A stretch of DNA of 30,723 bases. Origin: a virus. Taxonomy: Duplodnaviria; Heunggongvirae; Uroviricota; Caudoviricetes. Within the stretch, counting starts at the first letter, position 1; each line of letters opens with the position of its first letter. Below, piece after piece: positions 411-28,005 of this stretch. The notes beneath the pieces are model-generated. The model worked only from the letters and a program-made list of their open reading frames with translations, was not told where the DNA came from and searched no databases. Made by a program: the position numbers and the translations under genes. The DNA is taken from positions 1 through 30,723 of IMG/VR virus record IMGVR_UViG_2648501461_000010. One strand, given 5' to 3'.

Positions 411-1259
411 CTATTTAATACTCAGCAACTGCTCGACGGTCATATTTTTAATTGCGCCCCGGTTTATGAGAGTCCATCCCTGCTTTTCCAGATAAAAACG
501 GAAAGTATCCAGAGTACAGACCAGTGCGCCATCAGGAACGGTTTCGGTGAATTTGATGTAGCCGTGTTCGTCGAAGCGGATAACCAGGGTTCGGTCATCA
601 CCCGGGATTATTTTGTCAGCGGGTGTGGTGTTATTCCGGCGCAGTTCTTCCTCCATGCGGTCGAACTCGGCAATGTAGGCTTCCTTGAATGCAGCGGCCT
701 TTTTGCCGGTGAAGCCCATCACCAGGAAAACGAAGCCGTTTTTGGTGATTTGGTAGGCATTGTAGGTATTGCCACGGTGCTCGAATTTAACCCGCGAAAA
801 GTTGCTGGTTAAAAAGCGTTCAGAACATTCGAGGGCCTCTATTTTTTGAACAACATGGTGATGCTGCTTGCCGAAGAATTCTGCGATCGCAATAGACGTA
901 GTGACTGCGCGACCATTTTCAATGGTTACGTCAGGGTGAGAAAGGGTAAGGGTAGTAGCCATGATGGCATCCTCAAGTGTTAAGTTAATTAACTCACCAC
1001 CGAGGCTTTCCACGACCATAAGGGTGGCGAGACGTACAGGGGTGGAAATACCGGTCACTCGAGAACCCGGCCAGCCTTGCAGCTGCCCTGCACGCCCCAC
1101 CATTATCTGAATGTGGCTGTGCTTAACGCATAAAAAAACCGCTTCGGCGCGGTTATGCGCTCGAGTAACTTTCGGGTTTCCACGCCCGGCACCCGGTTTA
1201 TGAGGTGCAGGTGCACTATAATTCCACCCGTACTGGTTTTCAATAGCTACATTCAACAT
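411..1259 (-). CDS. Rha-family phage regulatory protein
   Basis: Central segment (VTTSIAIAEFFGKQHHHVVQKIE...GNTYNAYQITKNGFVFLVMGFTGKKAAAFKEAYIAEFDRMEE) fits the Rha domain. An internal ATG at 962 has a good RBS (GAGGA, 7-nt spacer) and would start the protein just before the Rha domain, so the true start may be 962 rather than 1259. Confidence 0.6.
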   Translation of the reverse strand: MLNVAIENQYGWNYSAPAPHKPGAGRGNPKVTRAHNRAEAVFLCVKHSHIQIMVGRAGQLQGWPGSRVTGISTPVRLATLMVVESLGGELINLTLEDAIMATTLTLSHPDVTIENGRAVTTSIAIAEFFGKQHHHVVQKIEALECSERFLTSNFSRVKFEHRGNTYNAYQITKNGFVFLVMGFTGKKAAAFKEAYIAEFDRMEEELRRNNTTPADKIIPGDDRTLVIRFDEHGYIKFTETVPDGALVCTLDTFRFYLEKQGWTLINRGAIKNMTVEQLLSIK

Positions 1260-1437
1260 TTTCTCTTACCTTTCATCACCGAAGTGAACTTTGTTGATGC
1301 GGTGTCTGGTGCCTCCAGGTGACGTTAACCAGTTAACAATTAACGCCGGATACAGAGAATCCACCCATAACACTGTTTTTGGTTTTAACTGTTCCGCGTG
1401 CGCTCAGCCGCATTCACCGCATCACAAAATTCACTTT

Positions 1438-1495
1438 AAAAAGGGCGGCAGAGCAGTCACGGAGTAAAACTGATACCGCCAAACGTCACCAGAAA
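1438..1495 (-). ncRNA. dicF: DicF-like small RNA (cell-division inhibitor sRNA of Qin/Rac-type prophages)
   Basis: Minus-strand sequence UUUCUGGUGACGUUUGGCGGUAUCAGUUUUACUCCGUGACUGCUCUGCCGCCCUUUUU matches my recollection of E. coli DicF, including the 3' GC stem plus U-run; it lies downstream of a ydfA-like leftward operon as in Qin. Identification is from memory, not a search. Confidence 0.55.
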
Positions 1496-2847: not shown

Positions 2848-3135
2848 TCAGATAGGGAAGGGAAATTGTCGGCGGGCATGCACAATATTTGCAATTTCAA
2901 TGCTTGAAGTTGCTACTCGGTACAAAACGATATAATTAGGGTGAACCACAATTTCCCGCAAACCGGATACTCGATCACTTGGCGGATATAGATATGGATG
3001 CTCAGAGAGGGCTAAAACAGACGTTTCAATCCGTATTTTTAGTCTGCGTGCTGCAGGAATATTTTCCTTAGCAATATAGGCTACGATCTGACGCAAATCA
3101 TCGCGAGCAGATGGTAGCCACAAAATGGGTAACAT
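2848..3135 (-). CDS. type II toxin, RelE/ParE family
   Basis: 95-aa protein with the typical ParE/RelE pattern (RDDLRQIVAYIA...REIVVHPNYIVLYRV...EIANIVHARR); its start overlaps the upstream antitoxin stop by 1 nt (TAATG). Confidence 0.75.
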   Translation of the reverse strand: MLPILWLPSARDDLRQIVAYIAKENIPAARRLKIRIETSVLALSEHPYLYPPSDRVSGLREIVVHPNYIVLYRVATSSIEIANIVHARRQFPFPI

Positions 3136-4546: not shown

Positions 4547-4617
4547 CTGACAATAGCCATATCGAATCGCTTCCGGCAACTCGTGAGTAAAAAGATTCGG
4601 TATCAGAAGAGGTGAGT

Positions 4618-5688
4618 ATGGCTAACGCCTGGCTCAGATTATGGCATGACATGCCAAATGACCCTAAGTGGCGAACAATTGCCAGGGTGTCAGGGCAGCC
4701 AATTGCAACAGTGATGGCAGTGTATATCCACCTCCTGGTGAGCGCGTCACGAAATGTCACGCGAGGTCACATTGATGTCACGACAGAAGATTTGGCAAGT
4801 GCGCTCGACGTGACAGAAGAGGTAATTGATTCAATTTTGCAGACGATGCAGGGGCGGGTACTTGATGGTGATTTAATCACTGGATGGGAAAAACGCCAGG
4901 TGCTTAAAGAGGACAACGGCAATATTTCGCAAACCGCAAAATCTCCTGCAGAGCGCAAGAGGGCGCAGCGAGAGAGGGAAAGAAAGCGGGAACAAAATGG
5001 CGATTGTCACGGCGCGTCACGAAATGTCACGCACATGTCACGACGAGTCACGACAGATAAAGATACAGATAAAGATACAGATCAAGAAGATCAAAACACT
5101 ATGGTCCATGGCGTAAAAAACGCCACGAACCAGGCAGGGGATGTTCAGACCGTCAATCTTGGTCAGCCAGCAGGCACGACACCGGAAGCCGATTCAGCGT
5201 ATGCGCTGAAAGCCGATTCGGGCGCTGTGCAGCAGGTGATGACCGCAAGGCCGGAGCAATCACACCAACTGCAGCAGCCTGAAGCCGATTCCGCCATTCA
5301 GCGGGAAGCCGATCGGGTAGTCCCGGAAAACACCGGGCAGCCTGTGGGACGAGTGGATTATCCGGATGTGTTCGAACAGGTCTGGCGGGAATACCCGTTG
5401 CGTGCTGGGGCAAACCCGAAGAAATCCGCTTTCAGTGCCTGGAAGGCCAGATTACGCGAGGGGGTGCCACCAGAGGCCATGCTGGATGGTGTGAGGCGTT
5501 ACGCAAGATACCTGGCGGCTACCGGGAAAACGGGAACGGAATTTGTTCAGCGAGCGACGACGTTTTTTGGACCGGACCGGAATTTTGAAAACCCCTGGTT
5601 GCTCCCGGTAAGCGGCACGAACAACCAGCGTTGTGTGAATCATATTTCTGAACCGGATAACGAAATTCCGCCGGGCTTCAGGGGGTAA
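4618..5688 (+). CDS. replication initiator / replisome organizer (O-like)
   Basis: N-terminus (ANAWLRLWHDMPNDPKWRTIARVSG) fits the phage replisome-organizer motif; the coding sequence contains two iteron arrays and an AT-rich tandem repeat, as lambda O contains ori. Start placed at the ATG at 4618 (RBS AGAGG); the ORF track uses the GTG at 4612. Confidence 0.65.
   Translation: MANAWLRLWHDMPNDPKWRTIARVSGQPIATVMAVYIHLLVSASRNVTRGHIDVTTEDLASALDVTEEVIDSILQTMQGRVLDGDLITGWEKRQVLKEDNGNISQTAKSPAERKRAQRERERKREQNGDCHGASRNVTHMSRRVTTDKDTDKDTDQEDQNTMVHGVKNATNQAGDVQTVNLGQPAGTTPEADSAYALKADSGAVQQVMTARPEQSHQLQQPEADSAIQREADRVVPENTGQPVGRVDYPDVFEQVWREYPLRAGANPKKSAFSAWKARLREGVPPEAMLDGVRRYARYLAATGKTGTEFVQRATTFFGPDRNFENPWLLPVSGTNNQRCVNHISEPDNEIPPGFRG
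4742..4784. repeat. iteron array 1 (GTCAC repeats) inside the initiator gene
   Basis: GTCAC at 4746, 4756, 4766 and 4777, spaced 10-11 bp; the 21-bp unit GCGCGTCACGAAATGTCACGC recurs at 5012. Confidence 0.6.
5002..5093. repeat. iteron array 2 plus AT-rich tandem repeat (candidate replication origin)
   Basis: GTCAC at 5006, 5016, 5026, 5037 and 5047 at about 10-bp (one helical turn) spacing, followed by tandem GATAAAGATACA x2 and an A-rich tract. Confidence 0.6.
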
Positions 5689-5728
5689 GTGTTAATTTCT
5701 GGTCATGAGGTAATTTTCAGGAGGGCTT

Positions 5729-6154
5729 GTGGCAAAAGTTTTTACACAAGAAGAGCGGGAAAAAATTAAAGGGCAGGTTCTTGAACTCGTACGCCAGAGT
5801 GGGCGCGAGACGTTACGACAACTGGAAGCTAAAACTGGGGCAACAAGATATCTGATGAGCGTTCTGGCCAGAGAGCTGGTTGCCAGTGGCGATGTATACA
5901 ACTCTGGTTACGGGTTATTCCCGTCTGAACAGGCGCGTAAGGACTGGCAAAATGCCCGTAAAAAGCTCTCAAGGGCAAAGCTGAATAAACCATCTGCGGT
6001 TGATCCGGACCTTATCTGGTCGTTACCAGACGGCGAAATACGCCGCTACGACAGGCGCCTGAATATAATCTGTCGCGAGTGCCGGAAGAGCGAAGCTATG
6101 CAGCGTGTACTGGCATTTTATCAAGGAAATGTTAGGTATTTTAGACGTTACTAG
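5729..6154 (+). CDS. hypothetical protein (141 aa), possibly winged-helix, downstream of the initiator
   Basis: GTG start with RBS CAGGAGGG; basic protein with no recognised family; sits where a helicase loader (P/DnaC-like) would usually be. Confidence 0.5.
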   Translation: MAKVFTQEEREKIKGQVLELVRQSGRETLRQLEAKTGATRYLMSVLARELVASGDVYNSGYGLFPSEQARKDWQNARKKLSRAKLNKPSAVDPDLIWSLPDGEIRRYDRRLNIICRECRKSEAMQRVLAFYQGNVRYFRRY

Positions 6155-6307
6155 ATTAAAGAGCATTAGTTCAGATGTGAATTGACATTTTCATGGCGCA
6201 GGGTAGAGCCAGCGTGGTTGTCCGCTTTGCGTCAAAACCAGATATTACCAGATTTAGACATATATTCCCGATAGCCCTGCTCTGATGCTACACTCTGTGC
6301 TATTTTC

Positions 6308-6994
6308 ATGACCCCAATAAAAATATTTATGACTATTGCTGATTTCAAACGGCCTAAATTGGAGCTCCCAAACGGGGCAAACAAACTACTACTGCACTCT
6401 TGCTGTGCTCCATGTTCCGGTGAAGTGATGGAGGCGCTTCAGGCCTCGGGAATCGACTACACCATCTTTTTCTACAACCCGAACATTCATCCTCAGAAAG
6501 AGTATTTAATTCGTAAGGATGAAAATATTCGCTTTGCTGAACAACACGGCGTGCCGTTTATCGATGCTGATTACGACACCGACAACTGGTTTGAACGTGC
6601 CAAAGGAATGGAATGGGAGCCTGAGAGGGGGATCCGTTGTACCATGTGTTTTGACATGCGTTTTGAGCGGACAGCGTTGTACGCTGCTGAAAATGGTTTC
6701 AGTGTGATCAGCAGTTCACTGGGCATTTCACGCTGGAAAAATATGCAGCAGGTTAACGAGTGTGGGCGGCGAGCTGTTGCGCATTATCCGGGTATGGTGT
6801 ACTGGGATTATAACTGGCGCAAGCAGGGCGGCTCGTCCCGTATGATTGAAATCAGCAAGCGCGAAAAATTCTATCAGCAGGAATATTGTGGCTGTGTGTA
6901 TTCTCTGCGCGATACCAATCTACACCGCAAATCTCAGGGGCGCCCTCTTATCAAAATTGGCCAACTCCACTACGGAAAAGAAGAGAAGGAGTGA
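6308..6994 (+). CDS. queH: epoxyqueuosine reductase QueH (DUF208 family)
   Basis: N-terminal [11 protein letters not shown] motif plus downstream conserved Cys residues and a size of about 225 aa are characteristic of QueH. Alternative start ATG at 6329. Confidence 0.75.
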
Positions 6995-7231
6995 TTTTAT
7001 GGATCACCTTTCTGATTGATTTCATATTGGCGAGGTGACGTGAGTTAAGTAGAATTGCTGCGGGTGCTTGAGGCTATCTGCCTCAGGCATGAACACCAAA
7101 AGGCAGATAGAGAAAAGCCCCAGTTAACATTACGCGTCCTGCAAGACGCTTAACATTAATCTGAGGCTCAATCCATGCTGAACACATGTAGGTTAGCCTC
7201 TTACGTGCCGAAAGGCAAGGAGAAGCAGGCT

Positions 7232-7387
7232 ATGAAGCAGCAAAAGGCGATGTTAATCGCCCTGATCGTCATCTGTTTAACCGTCATAGTGACGGCACTG
7301 GTAACGAGGAAAGACCTCTGCGAGGTACGAATCCGAACCGGCCAGACGGAGGTCGCTGTCTTCACAGCTTACGAACCTGAGGAGTAA
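7232..7387 (+). CDS. Hok/Gef-family type I toxin
   Basis: MKQQKAMLIALIVICLTVIVTALVTRKDLCEVRIRTGQTEVAVFTAYEPEE matches the Hok consensus (transmembrane helix, LTRK..LCE, EVA..AYE); RBS AAGGAGAAG; followed by the typical structured 3' end and terminator. Confidence 0.8.
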   Translation: MKQQKAMLIALIVICLTVIVTALVTRKDLCEVRIRTGQTEVAVFTAYEPEE

Positions 7388-7455
7388 GAGACCAGGCGGG
7401 GGAGAAATCCCTCGCCACCTCTGATGTGTCAGGCATCCTCAACGCACCCGCACTT

Positions 7456-7482
7456 AACCCGCTTCGGCGGGTTTTGTTTTTT
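7456..7482 (+). terminator. rho-independent terminator at the 3' end of the hok mRNA
   Basis: Stem AACCCGC / GCGGGTT with loop TTCG followed by TTGTTTTTT. Confidence 0.6.
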
Positions 7483-7554
7483 CCTGGCATTCTGGTTTAC
7501 AATTCGCACGCCAGCCTGAACAACTGGCACCTGCTGCGCCAGCAGAGACAACCG

Positions 7555-7833
7555 ATGGCGCACGATACCAAATTACACAATTCTAATGATTCTGCCGTCT
7601 TTGCCAGCAGGTGCGGACGGCGTTTTCACGCATTCAAATCAGACTGGTTCCAGCATCCTCCATGCACTGAAGAGCAGGCTGAATGGATAATTCAGTGTTA
7701 CCGCAGGCGTGGATACGAGGTTAAGAAAGCCCTCAGCCTCGATTATCGTCACTGGATAATCTACGTCAGGCTGCCGTACTCCGAGCGCCCACCGCGTCCG
7801 TCCCGCACATTCCAGCAACGCATCTGGAGGTAA
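7555..7833 (+). CDS. hypothetical protein (about 92 aa)
   Basis: ORF between hok and the DUF968 gene; start placed at the first ATG after the hok terminator, since the longer frame from 7426 would span the terminator. Weak RBS, start uncertain. Confidence 0.4.
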   Translation: MAHDTKLHNSNDSAVFASRCGRRFHAFKSDWFQHPPCTEEQAEWIIQCYRRRGYEVKKALSLDYRHWIIYVRLPYSERPPRPSRTFQQRIWR

Positions 7834-7834
7834 C

Positions 7835-8884
7835 GTGCGGGTATTACTTCGACCTGTTCCGGTACCGGAACTTGGGCTGGTGGTCCTTAAACCAGGCCGT
7901 GAATCCATGCAGGTATTCCATAACCCTCGAGTGCTGGTGGAGCCGGAACCGAAAAGCATGCGTGGTCTGCCGTCCGGCATCGTCCCTGCCGTTCGCCAGC
8001 CGCTGGCGGAGGATAAATCATTACTGCGGTTTTTCAGCAATGAGCGTGTGATTCGTGCTGCTGGCGGCGCTGGTGCACTGTCTGACTGGCTGTTGCGTCA
8101 TGTCAAATCCTGCCAGTGGCCTCATGGTGACTATCATCACAGTGAAACCGTCATACATCGTTACGGCACCGGCGCGATGGTGTTGTGCTGGCACTGCGAT
8201 AACCAGCTGCGTGACCAGACATCCGAATCACTTGAGCAACTTGCTCAACAAAACCTGGCAGCATGGATGATTGACGTCATACGCCATGCAATGAATGGCA
8301 CGCAGGAGCGGGAGTTATCGCTGGCTGAATTATCCTGGTGGGCGGTCTGCAATCAAGTGGCGGACGCGCTTCCGGAGGCAGTATTACGTCGTTCTCTGGG
8401 GTTACGTGCGGAAAAAATCCGCGCGGTGTACCGCGAAAGCGACATCGTACCGGGAGAGCAGACCGCCACCAGCATACTAAAGCAGCGCACAAAAAATCTT
8501 GCGCCGTTGCCTCACTTCCACCAGCAACAGAACCCACCACTGGAAAAGGCGGTGGTCAGCATTGCCGTTGATCCGGACTCTCCGGAATCTTTCATGAGGC
8601 GACCTAAACGTCGCCGTTGGGTAAATGAGAAATATACGCGCTGGGTGAAGACACAGCCGTGTGCGTGTTGTGGTCAGCCAGCCGACGATCCCCATCACCT
8701 GATTGGTCACGGTCAGGGAGGGATGGGAACAAAGGCCCACGATATTTTCACGCTACCGTTGTGCCGGGAACATCACAACGAACTTCATGCGGATCCGCTG
8801 GCGTTCGAAGAAAAGCATGGTTCCCAGGTTGATTTAATTTTTCGTTTTCTTGATCACGCCTTTGCAACCGGCGTGCTTGGGTAA
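7835..8884 (+). CDS. DUF968-family protein (YdfU-like) with C-terminal HNH/zinc-binding-like motif
   Basis: 349 aa; C-terminus (CACCGQPADDPHHL...CREHHNELH) is an HNH-like Cys/His cluster; position upstream of rusA and Q mirrors ydfU in Qin. GTG start with RBS CTGGAGG. Confidence 0.65.
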   Translation: MRVLLRPVPVPELGLVVLKPGRESMQVFHNPRVLVEPEPKSMRGLPSGIVPAVRQPLAEDKSLLRFFSNERVIRAAGGAGALSDWLLRHVKSCQWPHGDYHHSETVIHRYGTGAMVLCWHCDNQLRDQTSESLEQLAQQNLAAWMIDVIRHAMNGTQERELSLAELSWWAVCNQVADALPEAVLRRSLGLRAEKIRAVYRESDIVPGEQTATSILKQRTKNLAPLPHFHQQQNPPLEKAVVSIAVDPDSPESFMRRPKRRRWVNEKYTRWVKTQPCACCGQPADDPHHLIGHGQGGMGTKAHDIFTLPLCREHHNELHADPLAFEEKHGSQVDLIFRFLDHAFATGVLG

Positions 8885-11170: not shown

Positions 11171-11246
11171 GGCCCTTTAGCTCAGTGGTGAGAGCGAGCG
11201 ACTCATAATCGCCAGGTCGCTGGTTCAAATCCAGCAAGGGCCACCA
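11171..11246 (+). tRNA. tRNA with CAU anticodon (tRNA-Ile2 type, lysidine-dependent, or tRNA-Met)
   Basis: 76-nt cloverleaf by manual folding, anticodon loop CUCAUAA, 3' CCA encoded; close to my recollection of E. coli ileX. Confidence 0.8.
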
Positions 11247-11247
11247 A

Positions 11248-11324
11248 CCGCCACTAGCTCATCAGGAAAGAGCGTCAACCCTTTAAGTTGAGAGTGCGAG
11301 GTTCGAGTCCCCGGTGGCGGTCCA
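11248..11324 (+). tRNA. tRNA-like gene, anticodon UUU (Lys) with atypical C33
   Basis: 77-nt cloverleaf by manual folding: 7-bp acceptor stem, D-loop with GG, TPsiC loop UUCGAGU, encoded CCA; anticodon stem UCAAC/GUUGA with loop CCUUUAA. Position 33 is C instead of the near-universal U, and the T-stem has one A-C mismatch. Confidence 0.55.
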
Positions 11325-11326
11325 GT

Positions 11327-11402
<76 letters not shown>

Positions 11403-11405
11403 TAT

Positions 11406-11480
<75 letters not shown>

Positions 11481-18117: not shown

Positions 18118-19335
18118 ATGAAACTTCATGAGATGAAGCAAAAACGAAACACCATTGCAAAGGATATGCGTGCACTGCATGAAAAAATTGGTGATAACGC
18201 ATGGACTGATGAGCAACGGGCAGAGTGGAACAGGGCGAAAGCTGAGCTGGATGCGCTGGATGAGCAAATCGCCCGTGAAGAAGAGTTGCGCCGTCAGGAT
18301 CAGGCATATGTGGATGAGTCCGGGCCGGAAGAGCGCCAGAATAATGAGGCGGAGAACGGGAAAAAGGCGGTGGAAGAGAAGCGCGCTGCGGCATTTAACC
18401 GTTTTCTGCGTGCCGGATTTGCAGAACTGAATGCTGAAGAGCGTAATCTGATGCGTGAACTGCGGGCTCAGAGTGTAACAACGGATTCTCAGGGCGGATA
18501 TACGGTGCCCACGCAGATGCGTAACAAAATCATTGACACCATGAAGGCTTATGGCGGGATTGCCAGTGTTGCGCAACTTCTGACCACATCAACCGGGCAG
18601 GATATCACCTGGTCAACGTCTGATGGCACGACTGAAGAGGGCGAACTGCTGGCGGAAAATACAGCCGCAACGGAACAGGATGTGACGTTCGGGACCGCTA
18701 TTCTGGGGGCTAAAAAGCTGTCATCAAAAATAATTCGTGTGTCCAATGAGCTGCTCCAGGACAGTGGGGTGGATATTGAATCTTATCTGGCAAACCGTAT
18801 TGCCCAGCGTATTGGTCGTGGAGAGGCGAAATATCTGGTTCAGGGGACCGGAACGGGATCACCGTTACAGCCAAAAGGGCTGGCAGCGTCGGTGACGGGA
18901 ATCATCCAGACTGCAGCCTCTGCCGCTTTCACCTGGAAAGAAATGAATGCCCTGAAACATGCCATTGATCCGGCATATCGTGGTGGGCCGAAATACCGCT
19001 GGGCATTCAATGATGCCACATTGCAGACTATTGAAGAGATGGAGGATGGACAGAAACGCCCGTTATGGCTGCCGGATATTGCAGGCGGTACGCCGGCTAC
19101 TGTGCTGGGGATCCCTTATGTTATTGATCAGGCTATTGACGGGATTGGTACCGGAAAAAAATTCATTTTCCTGGGGGATTTCAACCGCTTTATCATTCGC
19201 CGCGTTACTTATATGGAACTGAAACGTCTGGTTGAGCGTTATGCTGAGTTTGATCAGGTGGCATTTCTGGCTTTCCATCGTTTTGACTGTGTGCTGGAAG
19301 ATGTGGCAGCCATCAAGGCGCTCACTGGCAAATAA
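18118..19335 (+). CDS. major capsid protein (HK97 fold) with N-terminal delta/scaffold domain
   Basis: 405 aa; N-terminal roughly 100 aa is charged coiled-coil (delta domain) followed by the capsid body; canonical position after the protease. Confidence 0.9.
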   Translation: MKLHEMKQKRNTIAKDMRALHEKIGDNAWTDEQRAEWNRAKAELDALDEQIAREEELRRQDQAYVDESGPEERQNNEAENGKKAVEEKRAAAFNRFLRAGFAELNAEERNLMRELRAQSVTTDSQGGYTVPTQMRNKIIDTMKAYGGIASVAQLLTTSTGQDITWSTSDGTTEEGELLAENTAATEQDVTFGTAILGAKKLSSKIIRVSNELLQDSGVDIESYLANRIAQRIGRGEAKYLVQGTGTGSPLQPKGLAASVTGIIQTAASAAFTWKEMNALKHAIDPAYRGGPKYRWAFNDATLQTIEEMEDGQKRPLWLPDIAGGTPATVLGIPYVIDQAIDGIGTGKKFIFLGDFNRFIIRRVTYMELKRLVERYAEFDQVAFLAFHRFDCVLEDVAAIKALTGK

Positions 19336-19356
19336 CCACTCGTTGTTCAGTTACAG

Positions 19357-19378
19357 ACCGCGCCGACGCGGTTTTTTT
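19357..19378 (+). terminator. rho-independent terminator after the major capsid gene
   Basis: Stem ACCGCG / CGCGGT with loop CCGA followed by a 7-T run. Confidence 0.55.
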
Positions 19379-19411
19379 ATGCCCGCACAGTGTTGCGGGC
19401 AGGAGTTTCTG

Positions 19412-19729
19412 ATGGCAGCAATAGTGGAAAAACTCAGGGCGCAGTGCCGTATTGATACAGATGATGCAACTGATGATGAGTTACTGATGCTGTATTTCCG
19501 GGCTGCCTGCCGCAAGGCAGAAAATTTTATCAACCGTAAGCTTTATGAGGAGACGGTGCCGGAAGGTGATCCTGAAGGGGTGCTTATAGCTGATGATGTT
19601 TTGCTGGCGCTCATGTTGCTGGTCGGGCACTGGTACGAAAACCGGGAAAATTCCTCAGATGTCAGCAAGGCACCAGTCCCGTTTGGTTTTTCTTCTCTGC
19701 TGGAGCCTTATCGTTTTATTCCTTTGTAG
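19412..19729 (+). CDS. head-tail connector protein (gp6-like)
   Basis: Start at ATG 19412 with RBS CAGGAG; the longer track ORF from 19232 overlaps the capsid gene and terminator; position after the capsid gene. Confidence 0.7.
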   Translation: MAAIVEKLRAQCRIDTDDATDDELLMLYFRAACRKAENFINRKLYEETVPEGDPEGVLIADDVLLALMLLVGHWYENRENSSDVSKAPVPFGFSSLLEPYRFIPL

Positions 19730-19737
19730 GAGGAGAC

Positions 19738-20076
19738 ATGCAGGCGGGCAGATTACGTGATCGCGTAATTATTCTGAATGTCACCACCGCCCGCTCTCCG
19801 TCAGGGCATCCGGTGGAGACGGTGACGGAGGGAGCTACCGTATGGGCAGAAGTTAAGGGTATCAGCGGGAGGGAGATAATCTCAGGCGGAGCAGAAACCG
19901 CTCAGGCTACGGTCAGAGTCTGGATGAGATTCCGGCGCGATGTGACAGCGACTTCACGTCTGAAAGTGCTGACCGGTGCATTTAAAGGGGCCATTCTGGG
20001 TATAGAAGGTCCACCAATACCGGATGCACGCGCTACCCGGCTTGAAATACTCTGCAGCCTGAAGGGGAATGTGTGA
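19738..20076 (+). CDS. head closure / head-tail adaptor protein
   Basis: 112-aa protein with strong RBS AGGAGGAG, in canonical position. Confidence 0.7.
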   Translation: MQAGRLRDRVIILNVTTARSPSGHPVETVTEGATVWAEVKGISGREIISGGAETAQATVRVWMRFRRDVTATSRLKVLTGAFKGAILGIEGPPIPDARATRLEILCSLKGNV

Positions 20077-20522
20077 TGGATTTCAGTCTTGATTTTTCCG
20101 GCCTGGCGGATATTGCACGGGATTTGGAGACGCTCAGCAGGGCAGAAAACAATAAGGTTCTGCGCGATGCCACCCGTGCCGGTGCTGAAGTTATGCGGGA
20201 TGCAGTTGTTGAACGTGCGCCGGAGCGAACCGGGAAACTGAAGAAAAATGTGGTTGTTCTCACTCAGCGTTCAAAGCGTCGGGGGGAAATTATCTCGGGT
20301 GTCCACATTCGCGGACGGAACCTGCGAACCGGAAACAGTGATAACAGCATGAAAGCCAGCGATCCCCGAAATGCATTTTACTGGCGCTTTGTGGAGCTGG
20401 GAACGATAAACATGCCCGCGCATCCATTCATTCGCCCGGCTTTCGATACGACAGAGGAACTGGCAGCACGGATTGCCATACAGCGAATGAATCAGGCTAT
20501 TGATGAGGTCTTAAGTAAATGA
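20076..20522 (+). CDS. HK97 gp10-like neck/tail-attachment protein
   Basis: About 148 aa; start at ATG 20076 overlapping the upstream stop; position in the head-tail joining module. Confidence 0.7.
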   Translation: MDFSLDFSGLADIARDLETLSRAENNKVLRDATRAGAEVMRDAVVERAPERTGKLKKNVVVLTQRSKRRGEIISGVHIRGRNLRTGNSDNSMKASDPRNAFYWRFVELGTINMPAHPFIRPAFDTTEELAARIAIQRMNQAIDEVLSK

Positions 20523-20863
20523 GAGAGGCCACACTGTATTCCCTGTTGTCTCAGCTGGCCGGAGGACAGGTTTATCCTTATGTGGTCCCACTGACGGAGG
20601 GAAAGCCTGCGGTATCTCCGCCGTGGCTGGTGTTTTCTGTGGTGTCTGACACGGCATCTGATGTGCTTGATGGGCAGGCTGAATCCAGAATTACCGTGCA
20701 GATCGATGTCTGGGCGACAGTACCTGATGACGCAGATAATATTCGTGAGCAGGCGCTTGATGCGGTAAGAAAACTGGCACCCTCCGTTATTTCTAAAACG
20801 CAGGGTTATGATCCTGACTCCCGTCTGAGCAGAGCCACGCTTGAATTCCAAGTAATAGCCTGA
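20519..20863 (+). CDS. tail completion / tail terminator-like protein
   Basis: 114-aa ORF overlapping the upstream stop (ATGA); last gene before the major tail protein. Confidence 0.65.
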   Translation: MREATLYSLLSQLAGGQVYPYVVPLTEGKPAVSPPWLVFSVVSDTASDVLDGQAESRITVQIDVWATVPDDADNIREQALDAVRKLAPSVISKTQGYDPDSRLSRATLEFQVIA

Positions 20864-20884
20864 GGTCATTAATGATTTTACCCA

Positions 20885-20907
20885 CCCGCCGCTGGCGGGT
20901 TTTTTTA
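20885..20907 (+). terminator. rho-independent terminator upstream of the major tail gene
   Basis: Stem CCCGCC / GGCGGG with a 3-nt loop followed by a 7-T run. Confidence 0.5.
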
Positions 20908-20923
20908 TTTTCAGGAGACGAGT

Positions 20924-21628
20924 ATGTCCTCTAATTTTGAGCGTTCGCAACTGACGAAAATTATGATTTCGTCTGCACCGGTAACAGCAGAAACCCTGGA
21001 TTCTGCCAGCTATCTTGGCCTGAGCTGTACAATCAAAGAGGTGCAGTTTACCGCAGGACAAAAGCAGGATATTGATGTCACCACGCTGTGTTCTGTTGAG
21101 CAGGAAAATATTAACGGCCTTGGGGCTGCTTCAGAGATTTCCATGTCAGGCAACTTTTATCTGAATGCTGCCCAGAACGCGTTGCGCAGTGCCTATGACA
21201 ATGACACCACGTATGGCTTTAAAGTTATTTTTCCGTCAGGCAACGGATTTACCTTTATGGCAGAGGTGCGTCAGCATACCTGGTCTGCAGGAACCAATGG
21301 TGTTGTGGCTGCAACGTTTTCCTTGCGCCTGAAAGGTAAACCTGTGCTGACGACAGAGCCGCTGAAAGTGAAGGCCGATTTAAAAAGCACGCTGCGGGTT
21401 GCTTCCGGAGCGAAACTTGAAATGGCGGTTGAGGCTGCGGGTGGTGTGCCGCCTTATTCTTATGTCTGGAAGAAAGGTGGTTCTCCTGTTTCCGGACAGA
21501 CGGCGGCAACGTTCAGTAAGGCATCGGCAGTATCCGGTGATGCGGGTGCATATACCTGCGAGATTTCTGATTCAGCAAGCCCGGTTAACAAAGTGACCTC
21601 CACTTCCTGCACTGTAACCGTCAGTTAA
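20924..21628 (+). CDS. major tail protein with C-terminal Ig-like domain
   Basis: 234 aa with RBS AGGAG; the C-terminal roughly 90 aa (VPPYSYVWKKGGSPVSGQTAATFSKASAVSGDAGAYTCEISD) looks like a bacterial Ig-like domain, as on lambda V-type tail tube proteins. Confidence 0.85.
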   Translation: MSSNFERSQLTKIMISSAPVTAETLDSASYLGLSCTIKEVQFTAGQKQDIDVTTLCSVEQENINGLGAASEISMSGNFYLNAAQNALRSAYDNDTTYGFKVIFPSGNGFTFMAEVRQHTWSAGTNGVVAATFSLRLKGKPVLTTEPLKVKADLKSTLRVASGAKLEMAVEAAGGVPPYSYVWKKGGSPVSGQTAATFSKASAVSGDAGAYTCEISDSASPVNKVTSTSCTVTVS

Positions 21629-22014
21629 TGAGGATGGATGTGATGACTAAAAATATCCGTAATCTGGCACTGGCAACGATGTCGGGGTTTCGCCATAAAA
21701 CCGTTGATGTGCCTGAATGGGAGGGAGCAACGGTTGTGTTACGGGAACCTTCTGCAGAAGCCTGGTTGCGCTGGCAGGAGATCGTTAAAGCAAAAGATGA
21801 TGAGACACCGTTATCCGTTGCGGAGCGCGCCCGCCGAAATCTGGAGGCAGATGTTGAACTGTTCATTGATGTTCTGTGTGATACCGGACTGCAACCCGTA
21901 TTTTCAGAGGATGATCGTGAACAGGTGATTGCCGTGTATGGCCCGGTGCATGCGCGGCTTCTTCGGCAGTCTCTGGAACTGATCAGTGATGCCGGCGAGG
22001 TTAAAAAAAAGTAG
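21628..22014 (+). CDS. tail assembly chaperone (G-like)
   Basis: Precedes the tape measure gene; its 3' end carries a slippery heptamer that connects it to the downstream T-like frame. Start may be the ATG at 21643. Confidence 0.75.
   Translation: MRMDVMTKNIRNLALATMSGFRHKTVDVPEWEGATVVLREPSAEAWLRWQEIVKAKDDETPLSVAERARRNLEADVELFIDVLCDTGLQPVFSEDDREQVIAVYGPVHARLLRQSLELISDAGEVKKK
22005..22011 (+). other. programmed -1 ribosomal frameshift site (slippery heptamer A_AAA_AAG) for the G-T fusion
   Basis: A AAA AAG lies in the zero frame 3 nt before the G stop codon; a -1 shift reads GTA GCG CTT CCG GGG ATG CGT..., which is the frame of the 22026..22316 ORF. Confidence 0.65.
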
Positions 22015-22025
22015 CGCTTCCGGGG

Positions 22026-22316
22026 ATGCGTTTTCTGATGATGCTGGCGCTCAGGATGGGGCGCACATTGTCAGAGTTACGCCGGGAAATGTCCGCATCA
22101 GAAATCATGATGTGGGCAGAATTTGACAGGTTCAGCCCGCTGGGGGACGAACGGGCTGATATCCGGGCTGCCCAGATTGTTTCAGCTGTTTACGGTGCGC
22201 AGGGGGTCAAAGTGCCACTGAATGATGCGCTTCTTCAGTGGGAGAAGGAGCAGACAGAAGGCGTATCAGATCCATTTGCCGGACTGGAAAACGCGCTTTT
22301 AATAGTGTCTCAGTGA
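22026..22316 (+). CDS. tail assembly chaperone T-like segment (expressed as G-T fusion by -1 frameshift)
   Basis: ORF in the -1 frame relative to the G-like gene, directly upstream of the tape measure gene, as in lambda G/GT. Confidence 0.7.
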   Translation: MRFLMMLALRMGRTLSELRREMSASEIMMWAEFDRFSPLGDERADIRAAQIVSAVYGAQGVKVPLNDALLQWEKEQTEGVSDPFAGLENALLIVSQ

Positions 22317-22324
22317 GTCAACAT

Positions 22325-22347
22325 AACCGCTTCGGCGGTTTTTTTTC
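22325..22347 (+). terminator. terminator-like hairpin upstream of the tape measure gene
   Basis: Stem AACCGC / GCGGTT with loop TTCG followed by an 8-T run. Confidence 0.45.
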
Positions 22348-22356
22348 GTCCGGAGA

Positions 22357-25300
22357 ATGAGTGTGGCGACATTACGTGAACTGATTATTAAAATCTCGGC
22401 AAATTCCCGGTCATTCCAGTCAGAGATCTCCCGGGCTTCGCGTATGGGGCAGGATTACTACCGTACCATGCAGAACGGAGGCCGGCAGTCCGCTGCTGCA
22501 TCCCGTGAAATGCGGCGTGCACTGGCAGAAGTGACGGATCAGATAAATACAGCTAAATCTTCGGCACTGAATATGGCGGGGGCATTTGCCGGGGCTTTTG
22601 CTACCGGTCATCTTATTTCTTTCGCCGATGAGTGGAATTCAGTAAATGCCCGTCTGAAGCAGGCCTCACAGTCCAGTGATGATTTTCAGGCATCACAGCG
22701 TGAATTAATGGCGATCAGCCAGAGAACGGGGACGGCGTTTTCTGATAACGCCAGCCTTTTTGCCCGTTCTGCAGCTTCCATGCGGGAGTATGGTTACAGT
22801 TCTGAGGAGGTACTGAAAGTCACCGAGGCGATCTCCACGGGCCTGAAATTATCCGGTGCCAGTACAGCAGAAGCCAGTTCGGTGATCACGCAGTTCAGTC
22901 AGGCACTGGCGCAGGGAGTGCTGCGCGGTGAAGAGTTTAACTCGGTGAATGAGAACGGCGATCGTGTTATTCGTGCGCTGGCTGCGGGAATGGGGGTTGC
23001 CCGTAAGGATCTGAAGGCCATGGCGGATAACGGAAAGTTGACCGCCGATAAGGTTGTTCCTGCACTGATTAGTCAGCTTGGGGCATTACGTGATGAATAT
23101 GCGGCAATGCCTGATACGGTTTCATCCTCTGCAACCAAAGTTGAAAACGCCTTTATGGCCTGGGTTGGTGGTGCGAACGAGGCAAGCGGAGTGACGAAGA
23201 CGCTCTCCGGTGTGCTGAATGGTATTGCAGGCAATATTGACACTGTGGCAACCGCTGCCGGTGCTCTGGTTGCCGTCGGGGTAGCCCGATATTTTGGCAA
23301 TATGGCGTCTTCTGCTGGATCTGCAACTGCCGGATTAATTACTGCAGCCAGAAACGAAGTGGCTCTTGCGGAAGCGCAGCTCCGGGGGACACAGATAGCA
23401 ACAGCCAGGGCGCGTGCGGCGGTTTATCGTGCGCAACAGGCGGTTGTTGCTGCTCGCGGTACCGAAAGGCAGGCAGCCGCAGAAGCGAAACTGGCTGCTG
23501 CCCAGGCATCACTTACCCGTAATATTGCGGCCAGAACAGCAGCACAGACAACGCTGAATACTGTCACGTCAGTGGGAAGTCGTCTGTTAAGTGGAGCACT
23601 GGGACTGGTTGGTGGGGTGCCGGGGCTTGTCATGCTGGGGGCCGCGGCCTGGTACACGATGTATCAGAATCAGGAGCAGGCCAGAGAATCTGCACGCCAG
23701 TATGCCGCAACAATCGACGAAATTCGCCAGAAAACGTCGGCAATGTCGCTTCCTGAAGCGTCAGATAATGAGGAAAAGACGCGGCAGGCACTTGATGAGC
23801 AAAACAGGTTAATTGACGAGCAGAAAAGTAAGATTAAATCCTTACAGGAAAAAATTGCTGGCTATCAGTATGTGCTGGCAAACCCGGGCTGGACAACCGA
23901 TAACGGTTTTATGATTAACCACATGACGTCGGTAAAAACAGTCACAGAAGGGCTTGCAGAAGCAACAAATCAACTGGCAGTTGAACAGTCCCGTCTCACA
24001 CAAATGCAGGGCAAAGCGCAATCCATTCAGGATGTGCTTGCCGGGCTGGAGGAGCGGCGGGTTGCGTTGATCCGTCAACAGGCGGCGGAACAAAACAAAG
24101 CGTATCAGTCCCTGTTGATCATGAATGGGCAGCATACCGAGTTTAATCGCCTTCTTGGGCTTGGTAATGAATTACTTCAGCAGCGACAGGGGCTGGTGAA
24201 TGTACCGTTACGGCTACCACAGGCAACCCTGGATGATAAACAGCAGACCGCACTGAATAACAGCAAGCGCGAACTGGCTCTGTCCCGCCTTAAGGGGGAA
24301 GCGCGTGAGCGTGCCCGACTGGGCTATGCTGCGGATGATCTCGGCTTTGTGGGAGAGGCGTATCAGACAGCCAGACAGAATTATATCAATAACTCACTGG
24401 ATGCCTGGCGAAATAACCAGGCAAATAAACCCAAAGCGCATAAAAAGACCGAAGCGGAAAAAACAGAAGATATTTATAAACGGCTGATTAAACAGCAAAA
24501 AGAACAGATAGCACTGGCAGGGCAGAATACTGAACTGGCTAAGATGAAATATCAGGTCAGTCAGGGCGAATTATCAACCCTGTCAGAAGCGCAGAAAAAA
24601 ACGCTTTTGCAGAATGCAGCACTCATCGACCAGAAAAAGATTCGTGAGCAGCTTGCTGCGTATGAAAGCAGCCTGGCGGACAGTAATGCCAGTACCCGGG
24701 CGTCTAACGACGCGCAGTTACTGGGATATGGTGAAGGCTCACGGATGCGTGAACGACTCCAGGAAATGTGGAGTATCCGGCATGAGTTTGAGCAGAAAAA
24801 TAACGAGCTGCTGAGACAGTATCAGGCCGGAGAAATTGAAGAAGCCCTGTGGAAACAGGAGAAAGAACTGAATAAAAAATATCTGGAAGAGCGTCTCAGC
24901 GATCAGCAGGATTATTATGCAAAGGCCGATGCTTTACGTAATAACTGGAATGCAGGACTCCAGGAGGGGCTGACCAACTGGGCAGACAGTGCCACCGATT
25001 ATGCTTCGCAGGCGGCAGATGCTGTCGTTTCCACTATGGACGGGCTGGTATCAAATATTTCCGATGCGCTGGCCGGAAATGTTGTGGACTGGAGAAACTG
25101 GGGGAGTTCAATTCTCCAGGAAGTTTCAAAAATTCTGATGAATGCGGCCATTGTTAACGGACTGAAGTCACTCTCCGGTGCCGGAGGGTGGCTTGGTACG
25201 GTCGGCGGATGGATTTCGGGGGCGGTGGCAAACGCAAAAGGTGGTGTTTACACATCGGCAAATCTGAGTGCTTACAGTAACACTATTGTGGATACACCGA

Positions 25301-25590
25301 CGTATTTTGCTTTTGCGAAAGGTGCCGGGCTGATGGGCGAGGCCGGGCCTGAAGCTATCATGCCACTGACACGGGCAGCGGACGGCTCTCTTGGGGTCAG
25401 AGCCATTGGCAATGTGAATAGTGGCGGGGGGGTTGTTTATTCTCCCGTGTATCACATCAGCATTCAGAATCAAGGGAGCAATGGCGAGATAGATGCGCGC
25501 TCAGCCAGGGGACTGGTGGATCTGATCGACAGCAGGGTTGTGTCAATTATGCAGTCATCGCGTCGGGATGGAGGATTGTACAGTGCCTGA
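22357..25590 (+). CDS. tail tape measure protein
   Basis: 1077-aa protein rich in Ala/Gln coiled-coil sequence with a Gly-rich C-terminal region; positioned after G/T. Confidence 0.9.
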   Translation: MSVATLRELIIKISANSRSFQSEISRASRMGQDYYRTMQNGGRQSAAASREMRRALAEVTDQINTAKSSALNMAGAFAGAFATGHLISFADEWNSVNARLKQASQSSDDFQASQRELMAISQRTGTAFSDNASLFARSAASMREYGYSSEEVLKVTEAISTGLKLSGASTAEASSVITQFSQALAQGVLRGEEFNSVNENGDRVIRALAAGMGVARKDLKAMADNGKLTADKVVPALISQLGALRDEYAAMPDTVSSSATKVENAFMAWVGGANEASGVTKTLSGVLNGIAGNIDTVATAAGALVAVGVARYFGNMASSAGSATAGLITAARNEVALAEAQLRGTQIATARARAAVYRAQQAVVAARGTERQAAAEAKLAAAQASLTRNIAARTAAQTTLNTVTSVGSRLLSGALGLVGGVPGLVMLGAAAWYTMYQNQEQARESARQYAATIDEIRQKTSAMSLPEASDNEEKTRQALDEQNRLIDEQKSKIKSLQEKIAGYQYVLANPGWTTDNGFMINHMTSVKTVTEGLAEATNQLAVEQSRLTQMQGKAQSIQDVLAGLEERRVALIRQQAAEQNKAYQSLLIMNGQHTEFNRLLGLGNELLQQRQGLVNVPLRLPQATLDDKQQTALNNSKRELALSRLKGEARERARLGYAADDLGFVGEAYQTARQNYINNSLDAWRNNQANKPKAHKKTEAEKTEDIYKRLIKQQKEQIALAGQNTELAKMKYQVSQGELSTLSEAQKKTLLQNAALIDQKKIREQLAAYESSLADSNASTRASNDAQLLGYGEGSRMRERLQEMWSIRHEFEQKNNELLRQYQAGEIEEALWKQEKELNKKYLEERLSDQQDYYAKADALRNNWNAGLQEGLTNWADSATDYASQAADAVVSTMDGLVSNISDALAGNVVDWRNWGSSILQEVSKILMNAAIVNGLKSLSGAGGWLGTVGGWISGAVANAKGGVYTSANLSAYSNTIVDTPTYFAFAKGAGLMGEAGPEAIMPLTRAADGSLGVRAIGNVNSGGGVVYSPVYHISIQNQGSNGEIDARSARGLVDLIDSRVVSIMQSSRRDGGLYSA

Positions 25591-25924
25591 GCCTGAAGTT
25601 TTTAACTGGATCCCCCGTGAGGGGATGGAGACGACACGAAAGCCATCAGTTATTACGGTAAAGTTTGGTGACGGATATGAACAGAGACGGGCTGGTGGTC
25701 TGAATGCGGATCTGAAAACGTTTAAACCGGTATTTCGTGTCACAGATGAATATTCCCGTGCCGCGCTGGACAGTTTTTTATCCCGTCATGCCGGGATTCG
25801 TGCTTTTTTGTGGCGTCCGCCAAAACACAACAGGACTGTCCGGGTTGTCTGCAGGGAGTGGAGCATTTCGGATAATGCCATGTATACCGATTTTAACTGT
25901 ACCTTTGAAGAGGTCACTCACTGA
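25583..25924 (+). CDS. M: minor tail protein M
   Basis: Central region (VKFGDGYEQRRAGGLNADLKTF...FLWRPP) resembles lambda M; start chosen at GTG 25583 with RBS GGAGGA, overlapping the tape measure stop. Confidence 0.8.
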   Translation: MPEPEVFNWIPREGMETTRKPSVITVKFGDGYEQRRAGGLNADLKTFKPVFRVTDEYSRAALDSFLSRHAGIRAFLWRPPKHNRTVRVVCREWSISDNAMYTDFNCTFEEVTH

Positions 25925-26622
25925 TGCAGGATATACAGCAGGAAACACTCAATGAGTGCACTAAAACGGAGCAATCCGCGCTGGTCGTGCTCTGGGAAAT
26001 TGATCTGACAGAGGTCGGCGGAGATCGTTATTTCTTCTGTAATGAGCAGAACGAAAAAGGTGAACCAGTCACCTGGCAGGGGCGGCAGTATCAGGCTTAT
26101 CCCATTCAGGGAAGCGGATTTGAGATGAACGGCAAAGGAGCCAGTGCTAGGCCAACGCTTAAAGTCTCTAATCTGTACGGCATGGTCACCGGGATGGCGG
26201 AAGATCTGCAGAGTCTGGTCGGCGGAACGGTGGTCCGGCGTAAGGTTTACGCCCGTTTTCTGGATGCGGTGAACTTCGTCAACGGAAACAGTGACGCCGA
26301 TCCGGAGCAGGAGGTGATCAGCCGCTGGCGCATCGAGCAGTGCAGCGAACTGAGCGCGGTCAGTGCCTCCTTTGTACTGTCCACGCCGACGGAAACGGAC
26401 GGCGCTGTTTTTCCGGGACGTATCATGCTGGCCAACACCTGCACCTGGACCTATCGCGGCGATGAGTGCGGTTATAGCGGTCCGGCGGTCGCGGATGAAT
26501 ATGATCAGCCGACGTCCGATATCACGAAGGATAAATGCAGCAAATGCCTGAGTGGCTGTAAGTTCCGCAATAACGTCGGCAACTTTGGCGGCTTCCTTTC
26601 CATTAACAAACTTTCGCAGTAA
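25924..26622 (+). CDS. L: minor tail protein L
   Basis: 232 aa, same length as lambda L, with Cys-rich C-terminus; start overlaps the M stop (ATGA). Confidence 0.85.
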   Translation: MQDIQQETLNECTKTEQSALVVLWEIDLTEVGGDRYFFCNEQNEKGEPVTWQGRQYQAYPIQGSGFEMNGKGASARPTLKVSNLYGMVTGMAEDLQSLVGGTVVRRKVYARFLDAVNFVNGNSDADPEQEVISRWRIEQCSELSAVSASFVLSTPTETDGAVFPGRIMLANTCTWTYRGDECGYSGPAVADEYDQPTSDITKDKCSKCLSGCKFRNNVGNFGGFLSINKLSQ

Positions 26623-26632
26623 ATCCCGGTTT

Positions 26633-27376
26633 ATGACACAGACTGAATCAGCGATTCTGGCGCATGCCCGGCGGTGTGCGCCTGCGGAGTCGTGCGGCTT
26701 CGTGATAAGCACGCCGGAGGGGGAGCGGTATATCCCTTGTGTGAATATTTCCGCAGAGCCGGAGGCGTATTTTCGTATCGCACCGGAGGACTGGCTGCGG
26801 GCAGAGATGCAGGGTGAGATTGTGGCGCTGGTCCACAGCCACCCCGGTGGTCTGCCCTGGCTGAGTGAGGCTGACCGGCGGCTGCAGGTGCAGAGTAATT
26901 TGCCGTGGTGGCTGGTTTGCCGGGGGGCGATTCACAAGTTCCGCTGTGTGCCACATCTTTCCGGGCGGCGCTTTGAGCACGGGGTGACGGACTGTTACAC
27001 GCTGTTCCGGGATGCTTACCATCTGGCGGGGATTGAGATGCCGGATTTTCATCGCGAGGATGACTGGTGGCGTCACGGTCAGAATCTCTATCTGGATAAT
27101 CTGGAGGCCACAGGGCTGTATCAGGTGCCGTTGTCAGCGGCACAGCCGGGCGATGTGCTGCTGTGCTGTTTTGGTTCATCGGTGCCGAATCATGCCGCCA
27201 TTTACTGTGGTGACAGCGAGCTGCTGCACCATATTCCTGAACAACTGAGCAAACGAGAGAGGTACACCGACAAATGGCAGCGACGCACACACTCCCTCTG
27301 GCGTCACCGGGCATGGCACGCATCTGCCTTTACGGGGATTTACAACGATTTGGCCGCCGCATCGACCTTCGAGTGA
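26633..27376 (+). CDS. K: tail assembly protein K (MPN/JAB and NlpC/P60-like domains)
   Basis: MTQTESAILAHARRCAPAESCGF...VHSHPGG (JAB-type metal motif) closely resembles lambda K; the 3' end overlaps the I gene by about 100 nt as in lambda. Start uncertain (26633 or the in-frame ATG at 26807). Confidence 0.85.
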   Translation: MTQTESAILAHARRCAPAESCGFVISTPEGERYIPCVNISAEPEAYFRIAPEDWLRAEMQGEIVALVHSHPGGLPWLSEADRRLQVQSNLPWWLVCRGAIHKFRCVPHLSGRRFEHGVTDCYTLFRDAYHLAGIEMPDFHREDDWWRHGQNLYLDNLEATGLYQVPLSAAQPGDVLLCCFGSSVPNHAAIYCGDSELLHHIPEQLSKRERYTDKWQRRTHSLWRHRAWHASAFTGIYNDLAAASTFE

Positions 27377-27945: not shown

Positions 27946-27965
27946 TGCAAAATGTTTTATGTGAA

Positions 27966-27988
27966 ACCGCCTGCGGGCGGTTTTGTCG
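27966..27988 (+). terminator. terminator-like hairpin between I and J
   Basis: Stem ACCGCC / GGCGGT with loop TGCG followed by TTTTGTCGTTT; the T-run is interrupted, so likely weak. Confidence 0.35.
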
Positions 27989-28005
27989 TTTCTGGAGCGT
28001 GAGGA

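Follow-up and report, generated by a model that had tools for sequence, protein, structure and literature searches.

A lambdoid prophage of Escherichia coli carries a queH cassette that may make tRNA queuosine maturation independent of cobalamin

The last step of queuosine (Q) formation in transfer RNA (tRNA), namely the reduction of epoxyqueuosine (oQ) to Q (EC 1.17.99.6), is attributed to both QueG (YjeS) and QueH, which act on the same tRNA substrates (PMC5372724). QueG needs cobalamin (vitamin B12) and two [4Fe-4S] clusters (PMC4646009), the cobalamin dependence of the step being credited in that article to Frey 1988. QueH has no sequence or fold relationship to QueG, and is described as its cobalamin-independent replacement (PMC5615194, PMC5372724). 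E. coli produces oQ-tRNA, and single-gene queG knockouts of strain K-12 accumulate oQ (PMC4646009), which implies that K-12 has no back-up epoxyqueuosine reductase. Here we describe a queH gene on a 30,723-nt stretch of Caudoviricetes DNA (IMG/VR record IMGVR_UViG_2648501461_000010, positions 1 to 30,723; hereafter the window), which represents a lambdoid prophage. The open reading frame (ORF) in question lies at 6308-6994 on the plus strand.

Enzymes of this kind have been met in phages in another form. The 7-deazaguanine (preQ0/G+) clusters of phages such as 9g and CAjan also consist of enzymes borrowed from the queuosine/archaeosine pathway (PMC6884629). Those phages carry DpdA together with FolE, QueD, QueE and QueC, and the products act on DNA, whereas the present locus holds QueH alone, which belongs to the last, tRNA-level step. 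A survey that covered the queuosine-pathway genes of viruses found homologues of neither QueA nor QueG nor QueH in those analysed (PMC6884629). The other close relatives are the morons of lambdoid phages. Like them, the queH locus is a sharp-edged insertion in a cargo hotspot, polymorphic among related prophages and equipped with a promoter-like element; unlike them, it showed no terminator of its own, and its cargo is a tRNA-modification enzyme and not a virulence, exclusion or defence function.

We consider it likely that the prophage gene is a functional queH on a captured 720-bp cassette, which would make Q maturation independent of cobalamin in lysogens. The product is very probably an active oQ-to-Q reductase on tRNA-Asn, tRNA-Asp, tRNA-His and tRNA-Tyr.

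Family assignment, metal ligands and predicted fold

The ORF begins with ATG and encodes 228 amino acids, including the segment HSCCAPCS. Its product matched the Pfam family PF02677 (QueH/DUF208) with an E-value of 1.1e-65 and a score of 221.5 bits, covering model positions 1-174 of 175. As the gathering cutoff of this family is 23.5 bits, a chance match is excluded. When the protein was compared with the PDB sequences by phmmer, the matches were solely to Thermotoga maritima QueH (7lc5 and its variants), the best being 7lc5 (E=8e-22, aligned residues 27-203). The initial annotation had proposed a QueH-type (DUF208) gene with a CCAPC motif; the Pfam hidden Markov model, the motif and the predicted fold all bear out this proposal, and the gene at 6308-6994 is a member of the QueH, tRNA epoxyqueuosine(34) reductase, family. 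RefSeq already names the E. coli copies "epoxyqueuosine reductase QueH". A scan of the product against NCBIfam gave no family match, and the RefSeq name stems from another rule. An in-silico suggestion of 2012 that DUF208 acts in Holliday-junction resolution (PMC3403352) is superseded by the QueH assignment.

Three groups of cysteine codons, all on the plus strand, correspond to the metal-ligand positions of the structurally characterised T. maritima enzyme. The CCAPC motif (6401-6415) supplies Cys32, Cys33 and Cys36 of the 228-residue ORF, equivalent to C25, C26 and C29 of the 221-residue protein that starts at the second ATG (see below), and aligns with the CCAPD of T. maritima QueH (C9, C10 and D13). 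A CxxC pair (6638-6649; Cys111 and Cys114, or C104 and C107) aligns with RCERC, and a CGC pair (6887-6895; Cys194 and Cys196, or C187 and C189) aligns with YCGCV. All six cysteines of the T. maritima protein (CC, RCERC and YCGC) are thereby paired with cysteines of the prophage protein. Where T. maritima has Asp13, the prophage protein has a cysteine. This is no deviation, because CCAPC is the majority motif of the family: it occurs in 94 of the 107 family representatives (50% identity level) that carry HxCC, and CCAPD in 3 of them. The seven cysteines are invariant in an alignment of 37 sequences with homologues down to 35% identity. In addition, the PDB contains the mutants C9S and D13N, a sign that these positions have been probed functionally. 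The ligand residues of QueH reportedly bind a [4Fe-4S] cluster together with an adjacent iron.

The AlphaFold2 model, which was built on the same 37-sequence alignment, reached a mean predicted local distance difference test value (pLDDT) of 95.7 and a predicted template modelling score (pTM) of 0.91. Superposition on 7lc5 gave a target-normalised template modelling (TM) score of 0.93 with a root-mean-square deviation (rmsd) of 1.3 Å over 180 columns. The top Foldseek matches were all T. maritima QueH entries, with TM scores of 0.90-0.93 and rmsd values of 1.3-2.0 Å; the next-best folds, TtuA-type sulfurtransferases and other proteins of the adenine-nucleotide alpha-hydrolase type, had E-values weaker by about 9 orders of magnitude. 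The prophage protein thus shares the fold and the six aligned cysteines with T. maritima QueH (7lc5, 7lc7 and 9deu). The two are about 30% identical and differ in that T. maritima has CCAPD where the prophage protein and most of the family have CCAPC, and in a C-terminal extension of about 25 residues in the prophage protein.

The extent of 6308-6994 given by the initial annotation holds as an ORF on the plus strand. Its start does not hold, as the real start codon is probably the ATG at 6329 (Met8), 21 nt further downstream. This start is favoured because a stop codon interrupts the divergent allele of E. coli GPEC657 between the equivalents of 6308 and 6329, because the first seven codons (6308-6328) are the least conserved stretch of the ORF, and because the RefSeq protein WP_000150294.1 (221 aa) begins at the ATG equivalent to 6329. 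The seven in-frame codons upstream of Met8 (6308-6328, plus strand), which read MTPIKIF, MNLINTF or ITPT*TF in different alleles, are probably part of the 5' untranslated region (UTR). Hence the probable coding sequence is 6329-6994 (plus strand; 221 aa plus stop), an extent for which the RefSeq start, the upstream stop of GPEC657, the Pfam match, the substitution rates given below and the AlphaFold2 model were used.

A further ATG inside the gene, at 6428 (Met41 of the 228-residue ORF), is preceded by GGTGAAGTG, in which GGTGA resembles a Shine-Dalgarno (SD) sequence. Among the 150 family representatives listed, at least 7 begin exactly at residue 41 (P0133, P0164, P0169, P0181, P0195, P0236 and P0244), and they look like start-codon miscalls at this internal ATG. 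In PHROGs, the product falls solely in phrog_3217, a family of "unknown function" whose profile likewise begins at residue 41. Many database models of queH are thus truncated at the N-terminus and devoid of the CCAPC ligands, probably owing to gene callers that prefer the SD-like GGTGA, and such truncated models may be the reason why phage annotation pipelines call queH "hypothetical". The idea that phage copies really are without the N-terminal CCAPC region was rejected, as the N-terminus is complete in the phage HannyBb and in every prophage allele.

Origin, promoter element and spread of the cassette

The limits of the cassette were set by blastn. Window positions 6279-6998 matched the chromosomal queH of Scandinavium sp. 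at 84% nucleotide identity, and positions 6280-6998 matched the prophage of E. coli GPEC657, the most divergent prophage context, at 90%; the flanking DNA was unrelated in both comparisons. Because two independent comparators agree on the boundaries, the cassette is taken as one 720-bp unit (6279-6998, plus strand). It is made up of the coding sequence with 49 nt ahead of the start codon at 6329 and 4 nt behind the stop.

Outside E. coli and E. albertii, the closest proteins are those of Scandinavium (92% amino acid identity), Kluyvera (91%), Enterobacter (88-90%) and Symbiopectobacterium (87%), followed by Erwinia (about 86%), Providencia and Proteus (84-86%) and Photorhabdus (about 80%). Chromosomal QueH proteins of the Enterobacterales, at 80-92% identity, have the same length and the same seven cysteines, and the closest of them also share the -10-like element described below. 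Their genes stand among ordinary chromosomal genes: between purL and glrK/glrR/glnB/hmp/glyA on an Erwinia-like contig, beside tmcA in Providencia, near rluE/icd in Enterobacter, and with non-phage neighbours in Scandinavium too. By contrast, the prophage gene stands in a lambdoid early-right operon, and the core genome of its host species relies on QueG. Among 80 species-representative loci, the prophage neighbours were shared by E. albertii alone. From these comparisons, the cassette appears to be a piece of the chromosome of a closely related enterobacterium, captured by a lambdoid phage with part of the queH promoter included. As such, it would be a clean example of a phage taking up a chromosomal gene along with part of its promoter.

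The putative promoter part is an extended -10-like element, TGCTACACT (TGn plus TACACT), predicted by comparison at 6286-6294 on the plus strand. It lies just inside the left boundary of the cassette, about 34 nt upstream of the ATG at 6329. In five prophage contexts with otherwise divergent upstream DNA, TGCTACACT is unchanged, and 77 of 80 IMG/VR loci have it. At an equal distance upstream of the chromosomal queH, TGCTACAAT, TGCTACACT or CTACACT was found in Scandinavium, Kluyvera, two Enterobacter species, Symbiopectobacterium, several Erwinia and Pantoea. This comparative evidence suggests, but does not prove, that a native promoter element was captured along with queH.

A search with the 687-bp queH sequence gave matches in 995 of 5426 complete E. 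coli genomes, with 707 copies at 99% identity or above, 181 at 95-99% and 107 at 90-95%. The carriers include E. coli B (REL606, NC_012967.1; B; ATCC 11303), E. coli C (NZ_CP029371.1) and ATCC 8739 (NZ_CP043852.1). Nearly all copies are chromosomal, and 3 of 1017 lie on plasmid records. One of the latter, pNR3838_1 (NZ_AP040233.1, a 94.5-kb record; locus L006, 1-14687), bears the whole lambdoid early region including queH; this record could be a phage-plasmid, an excised prophage or an assembly artefact. Among 50,697 GenBank phage records, QueH was detected in about 25. HannyBb is the only one of these that is clearly an isolated coliphage; its copy is 93.5% identical at the nucleotide level, occupies the same position and is annotated as a "hypothetical protein". 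The other tblastn matches are mostly short unannotated faecal "Bacteriophage sp." contigs. In IMG/VR, a QueH relative occurs on 214 of 2.9 million viral contigs, 189 of which are of the E. coli lambdoid type. The initial annotation had regarded the gene as unusual for this phage type. That is right for viruses at large, where it is very rare, but it does not hold within the E. coli lambdoid lineage, where the gene is common.

The cassette has the character of a discrete, variably present insertion, as seen for morons and lysogenic-conversion genes: its boundaries are sharp (6279/6280-6998), fewer than a fifth of the complete genomes carry it, and its flanks are shuffled. It has been kept while the neighbouring modules (replication, immunity, and hok versus restriction-modification) were reshuffled. 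The gene is intact both in the viable phage HannyBb and in decayed prophages (E. coli B; also REL606, E. coli C and ATCC 8739). In E. coli B it is preserved (B-ZidR; locus L004, 7022-7687) within a degraded Qin-like prophage that has dicB/dicC, is disrupted by IS3 and contains truncated tail genes. When the window allele was compared with those of HannyBb, E. coli B and GPEC657 by the Nei-Gojobori method, the ratio of nonsynonymous to synonymous substitution rates (dN/dS) was 0.03-0.04 at dS values of 0.27-0.44. The prophage queH alleles are under strong purifying selection.

Prophage surroundings of queH

The window closely matches the prophage of E. coli UPEC 26-1, which is integrated beside tRNA-Ser/mtfA, with 2 differences in 18,994 aligned bases; the name hokD is taken from the RefSeq annotation of that prophage. 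In the head-tail region (window positions from about 19000 to 30723), a position-by-position comparison gave 3110 mismatches in 14,574 bases. This mismatch is due to a register-shifting indel or to a different tail module, and the window is a mosaic relative of the UPEC 26-1 prophage from another strain.

The 5' part of the window holds, in order, genes for an exonuclease, kil, a Rha-family regulator, a RelE/ParE toxin, a repressor/Cro-like pair, a YdaT-like protein, the O-like replication protein (4612-5688, upstream of queH), DUF977 and queH. Then follow sok/hokD, DUF968, RusA, the Q antiterminator, four tRNAs, the lysis genes, HNH, terminase, and head and tail genes of the HK97 type. The nin-like position that the initial annotation had assigned to queH, between the replication genes and hok, is confirmed by the RefSeq annotation, the Rfam match to sok and the Pfam match to DUF977. 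The DUF977 gene (5729-6154, plus strand; Pfam PF06163, 100 bits) is the constant left neighbour of the cassette, being there in every informative IMG/VR locus and every annotated context. The right neighbour is variable. In the window it is a hok/sok type I toxin-antitoxin locus (7062-7387, plus strand), with sok at 7062-7237 (Rfam, 120 bits) and hokD at 7232-7387 (RefSeq). Across 80 IMG/VR loci, hok follows queH in about 56 and a Dcm plus NgoMIV-like restriction-modification pair in about 21; the replication module near the cassette is either O-like or a helix-turn-helix plus DnaC-like pair, with or without DUF1627. A Dcm methyltransferase and an NgoMIV-family restriction enzyme are also found to the right of queH in O157:H7 (Z1504; locus L008, 7872-9882), and a DUF1971 gene takes this place in the GPEC657 prophage (locus L005, 8290-8628). 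The slot to the right of queH (window positions 6995-7834) is a cargo hotspot.

On the left side, the window has only a 150-bp spacer between DUF977 and queH. A truncated methyltransferase remnant is situated at this place in E. coli B (locus L004, 6735-6920) and in HannyBb (locus L003, 5762-5968), which suggests earlier turnover of cargo to the left of the cassette.

The Rfam scan found no riboswitch (e.g. preQ1) and no RNA element other than sok next to queH. Far upstream, on the minus strand of window positions 1020-1494, it detected a C4 antisense RNA (1020-1107), isrK (1132-1208) and DicF (1443-1494). C4 and isrK fall within the gene of the Rha-family regulator (411-1259, minus strand), DicF just beyond it. 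This early-left group resembles a P1/P7-style antisense immunity element to which a DicF small RNA is added. Next to the prophage repressor lies a gene for a RelE/ParE-family toxin (2848-3135, minus strand; RefSeq), preceded by a small ORF. Downstream of the Q antiterminator, a four-tRNA array (11171-11480) has the anticodons CAU, UUU (Lys), UGU (Thr) and UCC (Gly), the CAU tRNA being called tRNA-Ile by RefSeq. There is no obvious link between queH and this array, as none of the four tRNAs is queuosine-bearing.

Function in the host and significance

With the K-12 sequence as query, queG was found in all 5426 complete E. coli genomes, at 80% coverage or above in each. As queG is universal in E. 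coli, the prophage gene represents a second, non-homologous epoxyqueuosine reductase and not a replacement, and both genes occur in the same cell.

The following sequence of events would account for the locus. A lambdoid phage would have taken the 720-bp cassette, with its coding sequence, 5' UTR and native -10 element, from an enterobacterial chromosome into what is now a cargo slot between DUF977 and hok (or the restriction-modification pair), upstream of DUF968, rusA and Q. As a cobalamin-independent tRNA epoxyqueuosine(34) reductase of the [4Fe-4S]-plus-iron kind, its product would convert oQ34 to Q34 in tRNA-Asn, tRNA-Asp, tRNA-His and tRNA-Tyr. Expression in lysogens would be driven by its own promoter, to which the early-right operon transcript would be added during lytic growth. 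E. coli makes no cobalamin de novo, and QueG needs it, so a prophage queH would let lysogens finish queuosine without the vitamin. This would amount to a lysogenic conversion of the tRNA modification state, and an effect of the gene on host tRNA modification, as proposed in the initial annotation, is plausible.

Several points weigh against this account. To our knowledge, no E. coli phenotype separates oQ from Q, and the benefit of independence from cobalamin is conjecture. At TGCTACACT there is no good match to a -35 element, and the site went unflagged in a generic two-hexamer promoter scan. Between 6995 and hok no intrinsic-terminator-like site was found, the sole one in 5600-7900 being at 7456-7473, after hok; queH is hence not a textbook self-contained moron. 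The ATG at 6329 has no SD sequence in front of it. Since the chromosomal orthologues are likewise without one, its absence from the prophage gene is not a sign of decay. Finally, the prevalence of 18% is inflated by clonal sampling, with many human isolates of extraintestinal pathogenic E. coli (ExPEC) and of the ST131 type among the matches.

The gene might instead serve the phage during lytic growth. QueH would then come mainly from the antiterminated early-right (pR-type) transcript, raise the Q/oQ ratio and aid the translation of NAU-rich phage mRNAs, any benefit to the lysogen being incidental. We think this rather unlikely as the main role. The position of queH fits it, as the gene runs in the same direction as the early-right operon in which it lies, after the replication genes and ahead of the Q antiterminator, and neither side showed a terminator. 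The isolated phage HannyBb also carries it. Moreover, phage infection of Shewanella raises queG expression and the Q/oQ ratio according to a preprint (bioRxiv 10.64898/2026.03.05.709803). NAU codons make up 61.5% of the Asn, Asp, His and Tyr codons of the prophage compared with 53.1% in a K-12 housekeeping sample of 12 genes, but such a small difference is usual for mobile DNA. The retained native -10 element speaks against this reading, and the intact queH of defective prophages unable to grow lytically, such as that of E. coli B, points to selection in the host. A lytic-phase role and cobalamin independence in lysogens are in any case compatible and not mutually exclusive.

It is improbable, in our estimation, that queH is a redundant passenger, that is, a perhaps active enzyme that hitch-hikes with successful prophages in cells where QueG suffices. 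The universal presence of queG would agree with such a passenger, as would the clonal pattern of the copies (707 of 995 at 99% identity or above) and the failure to find any paper on a role of the gene. However, a dN/dS of 0.03-0.04 at dS up to 0.44 means long-term purifying selection across alleles, and the cassette has been maintained amid shuffled neighbours and stays intact in decayed prophages. Least probable of all is that the protein serves a pathway of 7-deazaguanine DNA modification or anti-restriction in the phage, or that it is a QueH homologue which has acquired a different substrate. Phages do apply the preQ0 pathway to their own DNA (PMC6884629), and the adjacent slot sometimes holds a restriction-modification system. 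Yet neither the RefSeq annotation of the prophage nor the Pfam scans of its unannotated ORFs revealed a DpdA/TGT-like, FolE, QueD, QueE or QueC gene, so that a DNA-modification role is unsupported, and QueH was absent from the deazaguanine phages surveyed in the same article (PMC6884629). A new substrate is left little room by the 86-92% identity to chromosomal orthologues in non-prophage surroundings and by the invariant active-site residues. A functional QueH that frees lysogens from the need for cobalamin at this step thus remains the explanation that we prefer.

The enzyme family and its reaction were known, and the gene is named in RefSeq; what is new is a phage-borne QueH, for which our literature searches found no paper describing a phage or prophage copy. 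No QueH had been reported in the survey of viral queuosine genes, yet about a fifth of the completed E. coli genomes contain this one, and so does a viable phage. We tentatively suggest that it is the first viral enzyme of tRNA queuosine maturation to be described, a temperate-phage cargo that would uncouple the final Q step of the host from cobalamin, leaving lysogens with Q and not oQ under cobalamin-free conditions.

If this is true, Q would take the place of oQ in lysogens (E. coli B and C among them, but not K-12) in cobalamin-free conditions such as minimal media or cobalamin-poor host niches, and NAU/NAC decoding, host fitness or phage yield could be affected. Wobble modification would then differ between strains according to prophage content and cobalamin supply. 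Because B/REL606, C and ATCC 8739 possess queH, and the oQ of K-12 queG knockouts implies that K-12 has no back-up, these laboratory lineages may differ in Q/oQ in cobalamin-free media. Such a difference would be a possible confounder in cross-strain or cross-medium comparisons of tRNA modification and translation, and at the same time a cheap natural experiment on oQ versus Q.

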